From Escherichia coli (GTDB lineage Bacteria > Pseudomonadota > Gammaproteobacteria > Enterobacterales > Enterobacteriaceae): a stretch of 64,000 nt of DNA. The position numbers and the translations under genes were made by a program. The stretch is taken from NCBI RefSeq assembly GCF_003790525.1, contig NZ_CP033634.1. One strand, given 5' to 3'. The notes under the pieces are model-generated. The model was given only the letters and a program-made list of their open reading frames with translations. It did no database searches and had not been told where the DNA came from. Below, piece by piece: positions 7,410-54,873 of the stretch (position 1 is its first letter; every line of letters begins with the position of its first letter).

Positions 7410-7970
7410 ATGACAGAGCAGAAGCGACCGGTACTGACACTGAAGCGGAAAACGGAAGGGGAGACGCCTGTCCGCAGCCGGAAAACCATCATCAATGTCA
7501 CCACGCCACCAAAGTGGAAGGTGAAAAAGCAGAAGCTGGCCGAGAAAGCAGCCCGGGAAGCAGAGCTGGCGGCAAAAAAAGCGCAGGCCAGACAGGCACT
7601 GTCCATTTATCTGAACCTGCCCACGCTGGATGAGGCCGTGAATACCCTGAAACCCTGGTGGCCGGGATTGTTTGACGGTGACACGCCCCGGCTTCTGGCC
7701 TGCGGTATCCGGGACGTGTTACTGGAAGACGTGGCGCAGCGGAATATCCCGCTCTCGCATAAAAAACTGCGCAGGGCGCTGAAGGCCATCACCCGTTCAG
7801 AAAGCTATCTGTGTGCCATGAAAGCCGGTGCCTGCCGGTATGACACGGAAGGGTATGTGACGGAGCATATTTCTCAGGAGGAGGAAGCGTATGCGGCAGC
7901 GCGTCTGGATAAAATCCGCCGCCAGAACCGGATAAAGGCAGAACTTCAGGCCGTGCTTGATGAGAAATAA
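7410..7970 (+). CDS. finO: FinO fertility-inhibition RNA chaperone
   Basis: 186-aa product [14 protein letters not shown]... matches recalled F/R100 FinO; position after traX is canonical. Confidence 0.92.
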
Positions 7971-8557
7971 AAAAGCCTCCGTCAGAGAGAGGAGGCAGGG
8001 AAATAAGGCTTAAAGGAAATAACTTCCGTACCCAAAAGGAAATCGGTCCACTGAATTATTTAACACCATAATGTTGACGGGTTAAAGAGGAGTGATAAAG
8101 ATGAATGGATTCAGAAACAGTTCACGGAACGGTCAGGTCTGGCGCTGGCAGCGTGCCGGAAGCCGGGCCGTTATTCTGGAGGTCAGTGGACGCTGGATGG
8201 AAGCGGCAGAAGCATGGCGACGGGCTGCCGGTGTTGCACCCCGGACAGACTGGCAGCAGTTTGCCCGAAAAAGGGCTGAACAATGCCACCGACGCTGCCG
8301 GGGAAGGGTGTAACGAAAAAGCAGCCTTCATTACTCCAGGGATTCAGAAGGCTGAATAATGCATGAGATTTGCTTTTTTTAATATCCGGTCGGGCAGTAT
8401 GACCGGACAGTTCTGAGTAGCACAGAGTTTTTTCCGTATTAAGTCGTGATTTTATATTTTGTGATTAATTTCGCAAAATAAGGTGTTATTCAGTGTGTGC
8501 TGCGATATTCAGGATTACCTGAAATACAGGTGCCATTTATCTGATATGGAGAATAAT

Positions 8558-9019
8558 ATGAGGAAATATATTCCACTGGTATTATTTATCTTTTCATGGC
8601 CGGTATTGTGTGCAGATATTCATGGACGGGTTGTTCGTGTACTGGACGGTGATACCATCGAGGTCATGGACTCACGGAAGGCAGTGCGGATCAGGCTGGT
8701 AAATATTGATGCACCGGAAAGGAAACAGGATTATGGCCGGTGGTCAACGGACATGATGAAATCACTGGTTGCAGGAAAAACGGTTACCGTCACATATTTT
8801 CAGCGAGATCGTTATGGTCGTATTCTCGGGCAGGTTTATGCACCAGACGGAATGAATGTTAATCAGTTTATGGTCCGGGCCGGGGCTGCCTGGGTATATG
8901 AGCAGTACAACACAGATCCCGTGCTGCCTGTCCTTCAGAACGAAGCCAGACAACAAAAACGTGGGCTCTGGTCAGATGCTGATCCGGTTCCCCCCTGGAT
9001 ATGGAGACACCGTAAATAA
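8558..9019 (+). CDS. Secreted thermonuclease-family (staphylococcal-nuclease-like) endonuclease
   Basis: Signal-peptide-like N-terminus MRKYIPLVLFIFSWPVLCA then SNase-like motifs (LDGDTIEV, RLVNIDAPE, DRYGRILGQVY); GGAG 6 nt before the ATG at 8558. Confidence 0.75.
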   Translation: MRKYIPLVLFIFSWPVLCADIHGRVVRVLDGDTIEVMDSRKAVRIRLVNIDAPERKQDYGRWSTDMMKSLVAGKTVTVTYFQRDRYGRILGQVYAPDGMNVNQFMVRAGAAWVYEQYNTDPVLPVLQNEARQQKRGLWSDADPVPPWIWRHRK

Positions 9020-9064
9020 AGCGATGGCAATCTTATCATTCATCTGTTCTCAGCGGGAATAAAA

Positions 9065-9274
9065 ATGGCGAAAACAAAACAGGAATGGCTGTATCAGTTA
9101 CGGCGATGTTCATCAGTCAATACGCTGGAAAAAATTATTCATAAAAACAGAGACAGTTTATTAAACAGTGAACGTGAATCATTTAATTCAGCAGCAGACC
9201 ACCGGTTAGCGGAATTAATCACCGGAAAGTTATATGACAGGATACCAAAAGAGATATGGAAATATGTAAGGTAA
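9065..9274 (+). CDS. Hypothetical small protein
   Basis: 69-aa ORF between nuclease and DUF2726 genes in the same orientation; no recognisable domain. Confidence 0.4.
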   Translation: MAKTKQEWLYQLRRCSSVNTLEKIIHKNRDSLLNSERESFNSAADHRLAELITGKLYDRIPKEIWKYVR

Positions 9275-9311
9275 TAATTCAACATAATTAATTTCCAGGA
9301 ACAGATAAATA

Positions 9312-9902
9312 ATGAAGTTGATTATTTTTATTCTCATTGTTCTGATTATTGCAGCGTTACTTATCCGGATTATCCTCAGAAGTGTAAATCAGCATTCTCC
9401 TTTGCTGATGCAGTTACATGCGGCAGGTATACGGACCGGTGATGCAGAGCGAATACTGTCCGGCGGTGAATACTGGCAACGTCAGAAGACGCTGCTGACA
9501 GAAAGGGAAGTCAGTTTTATGAAAGGACTGTTCAGAATTGTGGATATGAAGCGGTGGTATCTGTGTCCGCAGGTACGGGTCGCGGATATCGTCCAGCTGA
9601 ACGGGAATATCCGGCCACGATCACGCCAGTGGTGGCAGTTATTCAGGATGGTGTCTCAGTGGCATGTTGATGTGGTTATCGTTGAGCAGCGTTCGTTCAG
9701 TATTGTTGCAGCAGTAGAGCTGGATGATGCCAGCCATTTACGACCGGAACGCAGACGCCGGGATATTCTTCTGGAAGAGGTTCTGAGGCAGGCTGGTATT
9801 CCGTTGCTCAGAAGCCACGATGCCAGAAAACTGCTGCAGATGACCGGAGAATGGCTGAATACAACAGGGGCTGATCAGCAGTCCCCGGAACATCGTAGCT
9901 GA
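9312..9902 (+). CDS. DUF2726-like (nuclease-related fold) protein with N-terminal transmembrane helix
   Basis: Hydrophobic N-terminus; central WHVDVVIVE and ELDDASH segments recalled as typical of DUF2726 proteins common downstream of finO in IncF plasmids. Confidence 0.65.
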   Translation: MKLIIFILIVLIIAALLIRIILRSVNQHSPLLMQLHAAGIRTGDAERILSGGEYWQRQKTLLTEREVSFMKGLFRIVDMKRWYLCPQVRVADIVQLNGNIRPRSRQWWQLFRMVSQWHVDVVIVEQRSFSIVAAVELDDASHLRPERRRRDILLEEVLRQAGIPLLRSHDARKLLQMTGEWLNTTGADQQSPEHRS

Positions 9903-10056
9903 CGCCTTCGCGTTGCTCAGTTGTCCAACCCCGGAAACGGGAAAAAGCAAGTTTTCCCCGCTCCCGGCGTTTCCGTAATAAAAAACGGGAAATGGTGGTC
10001 ACAGAATAAATTCCGGAACTACCTGTACCCAAACTTTATATAATAAAGGTGAATAT

Positions 10057-10506
10057 ATGGAATATGATGATGTATCAGAATTGATGATTAAGCGTGAACA
10101 CAATATTCTTATTGTTGGGAATTCTGCCTCCCACATTGATAAGTTTTTTAAGGAGTATTCTATACCAAGTTCTAAATATTATGATTTCACTCAGATTAAC
10201 AGTGATTCAGATGTAGAGAGAAATGAGAATGCTGTCTCTTTTATCAGGGATGCAATGAATAGTGAAGAGCTCACAATCATTTTTAATTGCGTTGGGTGGC
10301 CTGATTTAGGTGGTGGAGCAGCAGTATCACAGTTTGCAATGATGGCCAGAAAATTTGGTAAACAACTTATTGTCGCTGTAAGTGAAAAGGATGCCATCAA
10401 ATTAAAAGACAACTTTGATATTATTGGGATGTTGTCATATGGTAAAGAAAATTTTATTGCCATGAGTCATACGAAAAGCGAGTTAACTGGAGGGAAACGT
10501 CGGTAA
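10057..10506 (+). CDS. Hypothetical 149-aa protein in an AT-rich segment flanked by imperfect direct repeats
   Basis: Clean ORF with ATG start; Rossmann-like ILIVGNSA and GGG-containing segments; function unassigned. Confidence 0.5.
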   Translation: MEYDDVSELMIKREHNILIVGNSASHIDKFFKEYSIPSSKYYDFTQINSDSDVERNENAVSFIRDAMNSEELTIIFNCVGWPDLGGGAAVSQFAMMARKFGKQLIVAVSEKDAIKLKDNFDIIGMLSYGKENFIAMSHTKSELTGGKRR

Positions 10507-10649
10507 CGGATTAAAAATAGATGTAAATAAAAAGCATACTTATTGGCTGGAGTGACGCCTTCGTGCTTCGGTAGTAAAAAACGGGAAATGAAGGTAATAG
10601 TCAGCAACAGGGAATGTGGTATTATCGCGGCGGGTGTCTGAGCCTTTCT

Positions 10650-10740
10650 GGTTCAGGCAAGACGCAGGTACCAGAAATGCGAAGACCCCACTTGTTAATC
10701 CATTAACTCGTGAGGTCTGCATGAAGTACTTGAACACTAC
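10650..10740 (-). ncRNA. Putative SrnC-like antisense RNA (approximate)
   Basis: Position inferred from the Hok/Sok paradigm (antisense across the leader start region); promoter not identified. Confidence 0.3.
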
Positions 10741-10927
10741 TGATTGTAGCCTCTTCCTTGCAGAGAGGTCAAAGTTTATGACGAAATATGCCCTTATCGG
10801 GTTGCTCGCCGTGTGCGCCACGGTGTTGTGTTTTTCACTGATATTCAGGGAACGGTTATGTGAACTGAATATTCACAGGGGAAATACAGTGGTGCAGGTA
10901 ACTCTGGCCTACGAAGCACGGAAGTAA
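10721..10927 (+). CDS. SrnB leader/overlapping reading frame (mok-like) of Hok-family type I toxin locus
   Basis: In-frame upstream ATG at 10721 (MKYLNTTDCSLFLAERSKF) ahead of the toxin ORF, the arrangement recalled for srnB. Confidence 0.5.
   Translation: MKYLNTTDCSLFLAERSKFMTKYALIGLLAVCATVLCFSLIFRERLCELNIHRGNTVVQVTLAYEARK
10778..10927 (+). CDS. srnB: SrnB, Hok/Gef-family membrane toxin (type I toxin-antitoxin)
   Basis: MTKYALIGLLAVCATVLCFSLIFRERLCELNIHRGNTVVQVTLAYEARK, a typical ~50-aa Hok-family peptide; GAGAGG before the ATG at 10778. Confidence 0.8.
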   Translation: MTKYALIGLLAVCATVLCFSLIFRERLCELNIHRGNTVVQVTLAYEARK

Positions 10928-11210
10928 GCTGCCGGGCGGGGACGGAAGTCCCCGCTTTCCGGGAGTGTGAGGTATTTCAGGGGCAGACACCCTACACGTC
11001 AGAAACCGCCGGTCCCGCCCGGGGCCGGCACACAGGTTAAGGCATTTCCTGTTTTTCAGCCATTTCGCAACAAAATTCACACTAAACGACAGTAATCCCC
11101 GTTGATTTGTGCGCCAACACAGATCGTCGTCACAATTCTCAAGTCGCTGATTTCAAAAAACTGTAGTATCCTCTGCGAAACGATCCCTGTTTGAGTATTG
11201 AGGAGGCGGG

Positions 11211-11471
11211 ATGTCGCAGATCGAAAATGCAGTAACTTCCTCACCGAAACGCATTTACAGAAAAGGTAATCCGTTAACCGGAGCCGAGAAACAACGTATA
11301 TCTGTTTCCCGGAAAAAGGGGACACATAAAGCGATTAATGTTTTCATCCAGAGTGAACTCAAAGATGATTTGACACAGCTTTGTAAAGATTCGGGCTTAA
11401 CTCAAAAAGAAATGATAGAGCACTGGATTTTGAAAGAAAAAGCTGCGATGGATAATGCGAATAGAAGGTAA
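11211..11471 (+). CDS. copB: RepA2/CopB replication copy-number repressor (IncFII)
   Basis: MSQIENAVTSS... resembles recalled R100 RepA2; AGGAGG before the ATG; directly upstream of the tap-repA1 unit. Confidence 0.85.
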   Translation: MSQIENAVTSSPKRIYRKGNPLTGAEKQRISVSRKKGTHKAINVFIQSELKDDLTQLCKDSGLTQKEMIEHWILKEKAAMDNANRR

Positions 11472-11569
11472 CTAAGTTACTTTCTTGAACATTTGAATTG
11501 CGGATGCTAGATTACTGATCGTTTAAGGAATTTTGTGGCTGGCCACGCCGTAAGGTGGCAGGGAACTGG

Positions 11570-11670
11570 TTCTGATGTGGATTTACAGGAGCCAGAAAAG
11601 TGAAAACCCCGATAATCTTCAGCAAGTTTGGCGACTAAGAGAAGATTAACGGGGCCATCTAAAAACCGTA
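11570..11670 (-). ncRNA. copA: Putative CopA antisense RNA (approximate)
   Basis: Inferred from the canonical IncFII arrangement between copB and tap; exact ends not determined. Confidence 0.35.
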
Positions 11671-11706
11671 TAGCCAACAATTCAGCTATGCGGGGAGTAT
11701 AGTTAT

Positions 11707-11781
11707 ATGCCCGGAAAAGTTCAAGACTTCTTTCTGTGCTCGCTCCTTCTGCGCATTGTAAGTGCAGGATGGTGTGACTGA
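11707..11781 (+). CDS. tap: Tap/RepA6 leader peptide, translationally coupled to repA1
   Basis: 24-codon [27 protein letters not shown] whose stop overlaps the repA1 GTG start. Confidence 0.7.
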
Positions 11782-54099: not shown

Positions 54100-54470
54100 T
54101 TTAACCCACTCCACAAAAAGGCTCAACAGGTTGGTGGTTCTCACCACCAAAAGCACCACACACTACGCAAAAACAAGTTTTTGCTGATTTGCCACTTGAA
54201 TCATTAACTTATGTTTTAAATAATGTATTTTAATTTATTTTACATTATAAAAAGGATTCATTGGTGAATCGCATATGATTCACCAATGAATTTAACACAA
54301 CTCATAGATGAATCAGTAATAATAAAACAACGAGTTAAAGCGAATTGACTCTAGATTCAATTCGTGATGTGATTTGCTGCATGAATCGTAATTTTCGTAA
54401 CTTGCGTCACGATTCGATTCATCGATGAATTGTCATTTTTTTATATGTGAAATAAATTTGATGCGATAAG
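54100..54470. other. oriT region; nic predicted on the minus strand near 54157/54158
   Basis: Inverted repeat TTGGTGGTTCTCACCACCAA (54131-54150) followed by AAGCACCACACACTACGCAAAAAC, resembling the recalled F/R100 nic region; AT-rich tract with repeated motifs before traM. Confidence 0.7.
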
Positions 54471-54489: not shown

Positions 54490-54873
54490 ATGGCGAAAGT
54501 GCAGGCTTATGTCAGTGACGAAATTGTCTATAAAATAAATAAAATTGTGGAAAGAAGACGTGCAGAAGGAGCTAAAAGTACAGATGTAAGTTTCTCAAGC
54601 ATATCCACTATGCTTCTCGAATTAGGGCTTCGTGTATATGAGGCTCAGATGGAGCGTAAAGAGTCAGCGTTCAATCAGGCTGAGTTTAATAAGGTGCTTC
54701 TTGAATGTGCGGTAAAAACACAGTCAACAGTTGCTAAGATTTTAGGTATTGAGTCACTAAGCCCTCATGTTTCCGGGAATCCAAAGTTTGAATATGCGAA
54801 TATGGTCGAAGATATCAGGGAGAAGGTGTCATCTGAGATGGAGAGGTTCTTTCCAGAAAATGATGAGGATTAA
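54490..54873 (+). CDS. traM: TraM
   Basis: MAKVQAYVSDEIVYKINKIVERRRAEGAKSTDVSFSSISTMLLELGLRVYEAQ..., 127 aa. Confidence 0.9.
   Translation: MAKVQAYVSDEIVYKINKIVERRRAEGAKSTDVSFSSISTMLLELGLRVYEAQMERKESAFNQAEFNKVLLECAVKTQSTVAKILGIESLSPHVSGNPKFEYANMVEDIREKVSSEMERFFPENDED

Follow-up and report, generated by a model that had tools for sequence, protein, structure and literature searches.

The segment between finO and repA is known as a variable part of F-type plasmids, which in Enterobacteriaceae are the chief vehicles of genes for resistance and virulence. We analyzed this segment in a stretch of 64,000 nucleotides (nt) of the Escherichia coli plasmid NZ_CP033634.1, henceforth the window, to which all coordinates refer unless another locus is named. 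The setting is that of an F-type plasmid, and the interval in question lies within the accessory region between finO and the RepFII replicon. Here a gene named DUF2726 or yihA in matching plasmids (9312-9902 on the plus strand in the list of open reading frames, ORFs) is followed by a full copy of a conserved two-hairpin element, an AT-rich optional gene which we call ORF149, a second copy of the element without its core, and srnB. The TGA stop codon of yihA (9900-9902) provides the first three bases of the TGACGCC block of the element. The full copy, as delimited by a covariance model, occupies 9896-9977, or extends to 9995 with its tail, and has the minus strand as its structured strand, while the decayed right copy lies on the plus strand at 10553-10600. 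Between the two, a leader at 10005-10056 on the plus strand, recognized from an alignment of left junctions, contains the Shine-Dalgarno-like sequence AAAGGTGA and precedes ORF149 (10057-10506, plus strand), which codes for 149 amino acids (aa) and belongs to the IncF clade ('type A') of a family of small plasmid P-loop NTPases. The hok-family srnB module (10598-10927, plus strand) comes after the right repeat. An earlier reading of the bare sequence, below the original prediction, had described the gene as lower in G+C (GC) than its neighbors, and this is correct: its GC fraction is 0.356, and 0.313 at third codon positions, versus 0.517 for the window, 0.497 for yihA/DUF2726 and 0.507 for the srnB region. 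Low GC is not peculiar to ORF149 at this locus, as hha (9065-9274; 0.367) and copB (11211-11471; 0.395) are likewise AT-rich.

The original prediction had also noticed two motifs on both sides of the gene, and each of them does occur exactly twice in the window, flanking the 149-aa ORF: TGACGCCTTCG at 9900-9910 and 10553-10563 (chance expectation 0.06) and TAAAAAACGGGAAATG at 9979-9994 and 10575-10590 (chance expectation 0.01). Around the second motif a repeat search detected a direct repeat of 34 nt (9971-10004 and 10567-10600, 82% identity), the left instance of which, TTCCGTAATAAAAAACGGGAAATGGTGGTCACAG on the plus strand, is kept upstream of all type-A gene copies examined. On the left the two motifs are separated by 68 nt (9911-9978) that include both hairpins, and on the right by 11 nt (10564-10574, TGCTTCGGTAG). 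The left copy scores 96.8 bits (E 4e-24) with the covariance model and is the sole full copy in the window; the right copy retains the TGACGCCTTCG block and the 34-nt tail, with the core reduced to TGCTTCGG. Graded states of the right copy are seen in other plasmid loci: it is the same as in the window in L046 and is without TGACGCCTTCGTGC in L010, and in L004 and L012 a larger deletion replaces it and takes the 3' end of the ORF, giving a C-terminus of the form ...SEFCS. The right copy thus appears to decay stepwise across plasmids, its internal deletions presumably being secondary.

The element measures about 80 nt and comprises two hairpins; together with a tail of about 20-30 nt it reaches about 100 nt. 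On the plus strand it is laid out as CTGACGCC, a small first hairpin, GTTGTCCAACCCC, a main hairpin of about 16 base pairs (bp), GGCGTTTC and the tail YGTAATAAAAANCGGGAAATGG. The blocks CTGACGCC, GTTGTCCAACCCC and GGCGTTTC are invariant among all copies collected, the last two having been fixed by the search pattern, and the ends of the element form 7-nt inverted repeats, T(G/A)ACGCC ... GGCGTT. An 86-nt query of the element matched 7716 places in at least 5000 plasmid records, with Escherichia, Klebsiella, Enterobacter, Yersinia and Serratia among the hosts and 1-4 copies per plasmid. Further, a pattern scan of species-representative genomes recovered it on F-like plasmid contigs of Pantoea, Erwinia, Kluyvera, Kosakonia, Izhakiella, Buttiauxella and Klebsiella. 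The gene upstream of a copy may be yihA, traT (a second copy in many plasmids, e.g. L009 29039-29117), finO or a DsbC-like gene, and the one downstream copB, srnB, a PLD-type nuclease gene, an ORF preceding traD, or ORF149. Diverged copies (28-38 bits) were recovered from VirB-type and IncX-like plasmids in about 328 records of 30-52 kb. These copies lie in the opposite orientation relative to their neighboring genes and have their wobble pairs on the same strand of the element, so that the orientation of the element relative to transcription is not fixed; judging solely by the direction of the relaxase gene, the element is probably not tied to the transferred strand either. We did not find the element in IncP-like, Yersinia and Providencia plasmids that carry intact members of the P-loop family, and the element and the gene family are therefore not strictly linked. 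In a cmscan of 8000-13500 at E<=1 the sole matches were AS-pc02, sok, CopA and a weak PK-repZ, with no Rfam family at the element, and full-text literature searches with its sequence returned no paper. The element appears to have been neither described nor annotated so far.

Some of the more distant occurrences deserve mention in their own right. The diverged element of the IncX-like 31-kb plasmid L049 (NZ_CP116128.1, 15288-23742) is accompanied by thermonuclease, Hha, H-NS, topoisomerase III (TopoIII) and DUF2726 genes, so that this plasmid shares the accessory gene pool of the IncF finO–repA region, without a member of the P-loop family. Further diverged copies of 29-31 bits are present in L040 (7438-7521, Klebsiella michiganensis) and L035 (11650-11724, Entomohabitans), several kb away from the main copy and oriented like it. 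Contigs assigned to Streptomyces (L023), a Lachnospiraceae metagenome-assembled genome (L025/L026), Nanosynbacter (L028), Acinetobacter idrijaensis (L036/L037) and Microbacterium (L038) contain enterobacterial F-plasmid sequence (with yihA, traT and the element) that is in many cases identical with that of E. coli plasmids; contamination of these assemblies or mis-binning is likely.

The covariance model, which was built from 16 diverse copies of the element, rests on a structure with a strong strand preference. RNAalifold gives the minus strand -23.2 kcal/mol, with covariation (a change of both partners) at five pairs, versus -8.2 kcal/mol for the plus strand, on which the main hairpin is not predicted. 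For the window copy folded as RNA the minus strand reaches -42.5 kcal/mol with a z-score of -3.95, and the plus strand has a z-score of -1.39. The minus strand folds better in all 16 sequences with both RNA and DNA parameters. It accommodates pairs in 246 of 255 pairing cells (96%) versus 213 of 255 (84%) on the plus strand, a fraction that is biased by the consensus structure having been taken from the minus-strand alignment; this choice cannot produce the asymmetry in G·U(T) wobble pairs, of which there are 35 on the minus strand versus 2 on the plus strand. For every gene that flanks the element in F-type plasmids, the well-folding strand is the antisense one. A terminator scan called nothing at 9896-9995 or 10553-10600 on either strand, and no U-tract follows the hairpins on either strand, the tails being CGUUUCCG (plus) and GGGGUUGGACAAC (minus). 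An F-type nic-like sequence, GTAGTGTGTGGTGCTTT, is located at 54150-54166 of the minus strand, with the SLT (gene X) ORF on one side and traM (54490-54873, plus strand) on the other; we take it to be the nic sequence of the origin of transfer (oriT), and the minus strand would accordingly be the transferred strand (T-strand) of the window plasmid. The idea of a universal T-strand hairpin is weakened, as far as gene orientation can tell, by the IncX-like copies, which are oppositely oriented relative to a co-oriented relaxase gene.

ORF149 comes and goes around this element. DNA resembling the gene is present in 797 plasmid records, 382 of which cover at least 80% of the query, and the element and the neighboring genes each have at least 5000 matching records. 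The comparison with IncF plasmids that lack the gene, which the original prediction had recommended, showed that these have one element in the corresponding place (L001, L011, L045, L002), in three arrangements: another gene, the element and srnB (L001); a paralog, the element and srnB (L011, L045); and yihA, the element and copB, with neither the gene nor srnB (L002, L009 and many other plasmids). Conversely, the same gene is also found behind other upstream genes (L004, L044). Alignments of the window to other plasmids begin or end at 9899, 9973-9984 and 10577, which are the edges of the element and its tail. In L004 (1150-2138) and L012 (2174-2982) diverged paralogs stand in tandem, in the order 'type B' (MNYQTV..., 120-127 aa), full element, 'type A', and the duplication is an old one because their pairwise synonymous divergence (dS) exceeds 1. 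We consider it probable that modules have been exchanged, duplicated and lost by recombination between copies of the element, which fits the data better than a one-off insertion. The finO–RepFII accessory region would then be built of gene modules separated by copies of the two-hairpin element, a module being gained, lost or tandemly duplicated through recombination between these copies; ordinary homologous recombination would suffice for the exchange, and the internal deletions of the right copy would have arisen later, by decay. Of the earlier suggestion that a cassette was inserted or exchanged, the part about exchange is borne out by the variable presence of the gene and by breakpoints at the edges of the element, and the part about simple insertion is not, as no precise empty site came to light among the best matches.

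The product of ORF149 has no match in Pfam, NCBIfam, PADLOC or PHROGs, and its close homologs, which all bear the annotation 'hypothetical', occur only on enterobacterial plasmids. An exhaustive search of 1.8 billion cluster representatives recovered distant relatives of 141-164 aa (24-36% identity, phmmer E down to 9e-11) that possess an intact Walker A motif, G-x-T-G-[SA]-G-K-[ST], and a Walker B motif, LILD. The profile comparison proposed earlier for the protein established homology to these small P-loop NTPases: hhalign of the IncF clade against the clade with intact Walker motifs gives a probability of 99.6% and an E-value of 1.2e-23 with the motifs in register, and the intact clade in turn has weak matches to many P-loop entries of Pfam, NCBIfam and the PDB through the Walker A region. 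At the position of Walker A ORF149 has G21-NSASHID, all members of the IncF clade conforming to G-N-S-A-S-x-[IV]-D, and at the position of Walker B (residues 74-77) it has IIFN, as do all members of the clade. Thus, of the features that define a P-loop NTPase, ORF149 has the common descent and neither the Walker A nor the Walker B motif. The small Rossmann-like fold predicted at the outset was only roughly right, the protein being a probable alpha/beta domain related to small P-loop NTPases and devoid of the Walker A and B residues. Two other resemblances were discarded: for the likeness of GWPDLGGGAAVSQ to the T4 glycine loop of FtsZ, the glycines are not conserved in close homologs and the family aligns with P-loop proteins; the match to residues 381-569 of TraI (PDB 2l8b) is weak and not significant (E 0.79). 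The 21 pairs formed by seven gene copies all have a ratio of nonsynonymous to synonymous divergence within 0.20-0.58, which marks the gene as coding and under purifying selection, if not a strong one. The window copy ends 5-8 codons early through a change of TAC (Tyr) to TAA at 10504-10506, its homologs having 154-157 aa. These run on to ...GGKRRYRIKN, and the late nonsense change is common to plasmids of about 100% identity.

All the relatives with intact motifs that were examined are on conjugative plasmids. They are found near or directly upstream of a TopoIII gene in L005, L006, L007, L014 and L015/16, the latter gene being followed by Hha and H-NS genes in L014 and by an H-NS gene in L015/16; in L047, an IncP-like plasmid, within the relaxase operon from traF to traE (TopoIII), between these two genes; between virB2 and virB3/4 (L013, L048) or upstream of virB1 (L020); between the type IV coupling protein (T4CP) gene and pilN in IncI2 (L019); and within a pil operon (L008). 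The annotation pipeline PGAP labels them as 'ATP-binding protein' or, misleadingly, as 'sigma 54-interacting transcriptional regulator'. The latter name, borne by the 176-aa IncI2 member (L019, 4941-5471) that matches through Walker A only, looks like an annotation artefact. The unnamed 'ATP-binding protein' family of about 140-180 aa from IncP-like, IncI2 and VirB-type plasmids agrees with ORF149 in size, in a beta-loop-helix start and in the SKYYDF and ARK-GK-LIV blocks, and all its members are plasmid-borne. The IncF clade differs from it in its motifs, with GNSASHID where the family has GxTGxGKS and IIFN where it has LILD, and in its location, being found in the accessory region between finO and repA and not next to genes for TopoIII, the coupling protein or VirB proteins. 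From sequence, ORF149 can be assigned to an uncharacterized family of plasmid P-loop NTPases of about 140-180 aa, which to our knowledge nobody has studied. Since the lysine and serine of Walker A and the aspartate of Walker B are lost throughout the IncF clade, its members most likely cannot bind or hydrolyze nucleotide in the usual way and would act non-catalytically. ORF149 would then be a single-domain, non-catalytic descendant of a plasmid ATPase that acts, if at all, by binding a partner. That it has a role in plasmid DNA handling or establishment is a speculation prompted by the DNA-processing genes beside its relatives.

Several observations weigh against this interpretation of the locus. 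A synthetic query for the precise empty site, in which yihA and the element were joined directly to srnB, had two-piece alignments spanning about 1390 bp, i.e. occupied sites, as all of its best 30 matches (370 records cover at least 80% of it), so that among these best matches there is no plasmid in which the gene alone is missing between yihA and srnB. Many plasmids hold truncated copies of the gene, which is thus dispensable. The covariance model misses the right copy, of which 11 nt and about 34 nt of similarity remain, and its derivation from a full element is therefore a presumption. Recombination at the element is itself deduced from the positions of breakpoints. As for the protein, the structure models are of low confidence (pLDDT 64-68, with no gain from a deeper alignment), and Foldseek searches of the PDB and AFDB50 retrieved only its own family and generic alpha/beta folds, which is unspecific.

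Among the alternatives, a transposition-like insertion whose target duplication is seen as the flanking repeats would account for direct repeats around an AT-rich gene of differing composition. The repeats are, however, imperfect stretches of 11 and 34 nt that belong to an element independently present in thousands of plasmids; a transposase ORF is lacking from the insert, and the gene is not framed by terminal inverted repeats; the best matches include no precise empty site, and the same gene stands behind other upstream genes in L004 and L044. This alternative is effectively refuted: instead of a target duplication, the repeats represent a complete copy of a widespread, pre-existing element and, presumably, another that has suffered internal deletion. 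A less extreme alternative is that the element is mere expression punctuation, namely a terminator, a stabilizer of mRNA 3' ends or an intercistronic processing hairpin, with no part in mobility. Copies do start at the stop codon of the gene before them or no further than about 50 nt from it, and in an IncX-like plasmid the element fills the entire gap between two co-oriented ORFs in its well-folding orientation. One copy is also situated downstream of traT, where a paper of 1987 reportedly located terminator activity. Yet in F-type plasmids the well-folding strand is antisense to every flanking gene, there is no U-tract on either strand, and the terminator scan is silent. Punctuation alone would also leave the homology breaks at the element unexplained, although it is compatible with recombination between copies; as the whole account of the element it seems unlikely.

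The strand bias raises two further alternatives, both involving single-stranded nucleic acid. The element might be the site of a strand-specific, hairpin-dependent recombination in which cassettes are swapped by a dedicated single-strand mechanism, as with attC sites or the substrates of HUH (histidine-hydrophobic-histidine) nucleases. Such a mechanism would agree with a hairpin kept by covariation on one strand with 35 versus 2 wobble pairs, with the structured strand being the T-strand in the window plasmid as read from the nic-like site on the minus strand, with module borders that coincide with the element, with the retention of wobble pairs on the same element strand in the oppositely oriented IncX-like copies, and with the short inverted repeats T(G/A)ACGCC...GGCGTT at the ends. 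However, neither an integrase nor a dedicated recombinase accompanies the element, there is no sign of target duplications, and inspection of its sequence by eye reveals no integron core sites (GTTRRRY/RYYYAAC). Moreover, the copies are similar enough (about 80-100 nt at more than 90% identity) for RecA-dependent exchange, and the structured strand of the IncX-like copies is probably not the T-strand, as judged by relaxase gene orientation only. We therefore regard a dedicated mechanism of this kind as very unlikely. It is also quite unlikely, if slightly less so, that the element is an undescribed strand-specific structure that acts as single-stranded DNA or antisense RNA and is at the same time the physical site of cassette swaps between backbones; a relaxase or other HUH nuclease might, for example, use the hairpin as its substrate, or priming on the transferred strand might start there.

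Recombination between element copies by ordinary homology, as favored here, can be set beside several known systems. Like repetitive extragenic palindromic (REP) sequences, enterobacterial repetitive intergenic consensus (ERIC) sequences and miniature inverted-repeat transposable elements (MITEs), the element is short (about 80 nt) and strictly intergenic, forms hairpins that are better on the strand favored by G·U pairs, and has terminal inverted repeats and both orientations across plasmid families. It differs from them in its 1-4 copies per replicon, in being seen only on conjugative plasmids, in having no Rfam family, and in showing neither a target duplication nor a mobilizing enzyme, and we know of no sequence similarity to the REP or ERIC consensus. 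Integron cassettes resemble ORF149 and its element in that an optional ORF, apparently without a promoter of its own, precedes an imperfect palindrome that is structured and strand-specific, and in that cassettes occur in tandem (cf. L004). Unlike in attC sites, the GTTGTCC and GTTGCTC of the element do not fit GTTRRRY and the cores are absent on inspection by eye; and unlike in integrons, the flanking genes are plasmid backbone and the exchange is explicable by homology alone. In the vicinity of the element there was no sign of an IntI integrase or an attI site, though no systematic search was made, and the ORFs of 7500-13000 are finO, nuclease, hha, yihA, ORF149, srnB, copB and repA, none of which is an integrase. 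As with single-strand initiation (ssi) or primosome assembly hairpins and the inverted repeats of oriT, the hairpin of the element folds best on the presumed transferred strand of an F-type plasmid. The orientation of the IncX-like copies relative to the relaxase gene appears reversed.

The comings and goings of ORF149 are ordinary plasmid mosaicism; the element and the occurrence of a Walker-dead member of the P-loop family are not ordinary. We would class the element tentatively with repeats of the REP/MITE-like kind, and ORF149 as a pseudo-enzyme of the P-loop family. Organization of the finO–repA variation around one conserved, unannotated element of about 80 nt in at least 5000 plasmids offers a handle for studying how backbone modules are shuffled, and the bias of 35 versus 2 wobble pairs points to a function as RNA or single-stranded DNA. 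The gene ties IncF plasmids to small P-loop proteins that other plasmid groups encode next to TopoIII and type IV secretion functions; its IncF version is a natural Walker-dead variant, which would be useful for dissecting the role of the family. Should no function emerge, the finding reduces to ordinary plasmid mosaicism.

A few further features of the locus and of related plasmids are of note. In L009 (29000-29040) a separate GC-rich hairpin (AGGAGGC...GCCTCCT) directly follows the traT stop codon just before the element, and may be the traT terminator of the older literature, distinct from the element. A large IncF class keeps only the 3' half of the gene (query 285-536; L010 about 1790-2500), next to IS66-family genes, and the sequence abutting this remnant (...CAGTAAGTTGGCAGCATCACC) is presumably an IS1 end. 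The promoter scan called none in the leader of ORF149 (10005-10056), and a TATAAT at about 10038 was dismissed as its promoter, being too near the start codon and not conserved (homologous loci have TCTCAT). In the srnB module, the scan predicted a promoter at 10598-10625; this is followed by a hok/sok leader (10632-10788; Rfam sok match of 93.5 bits) and by the Hok-like ORF (10778-10927), which is named Hok/Gef in matching plasmids, and the CopA RNA and repA1 come after copB. Upstream, the ORF list places finO at 7410-7970 and the thermonuclease gene at 8483-9019. Literature searches on yihA/finO/srnB and on pHK01 antisense RNAs yielded nothing specific. The AS-pc02 match (RF02876, 'Antisense to pHK01_099') lies between finO and the nuclease gene at 8210-8393 on the minus strand with 202 bits, and thereby documents antisense transcription about 1.5 kb from the element.

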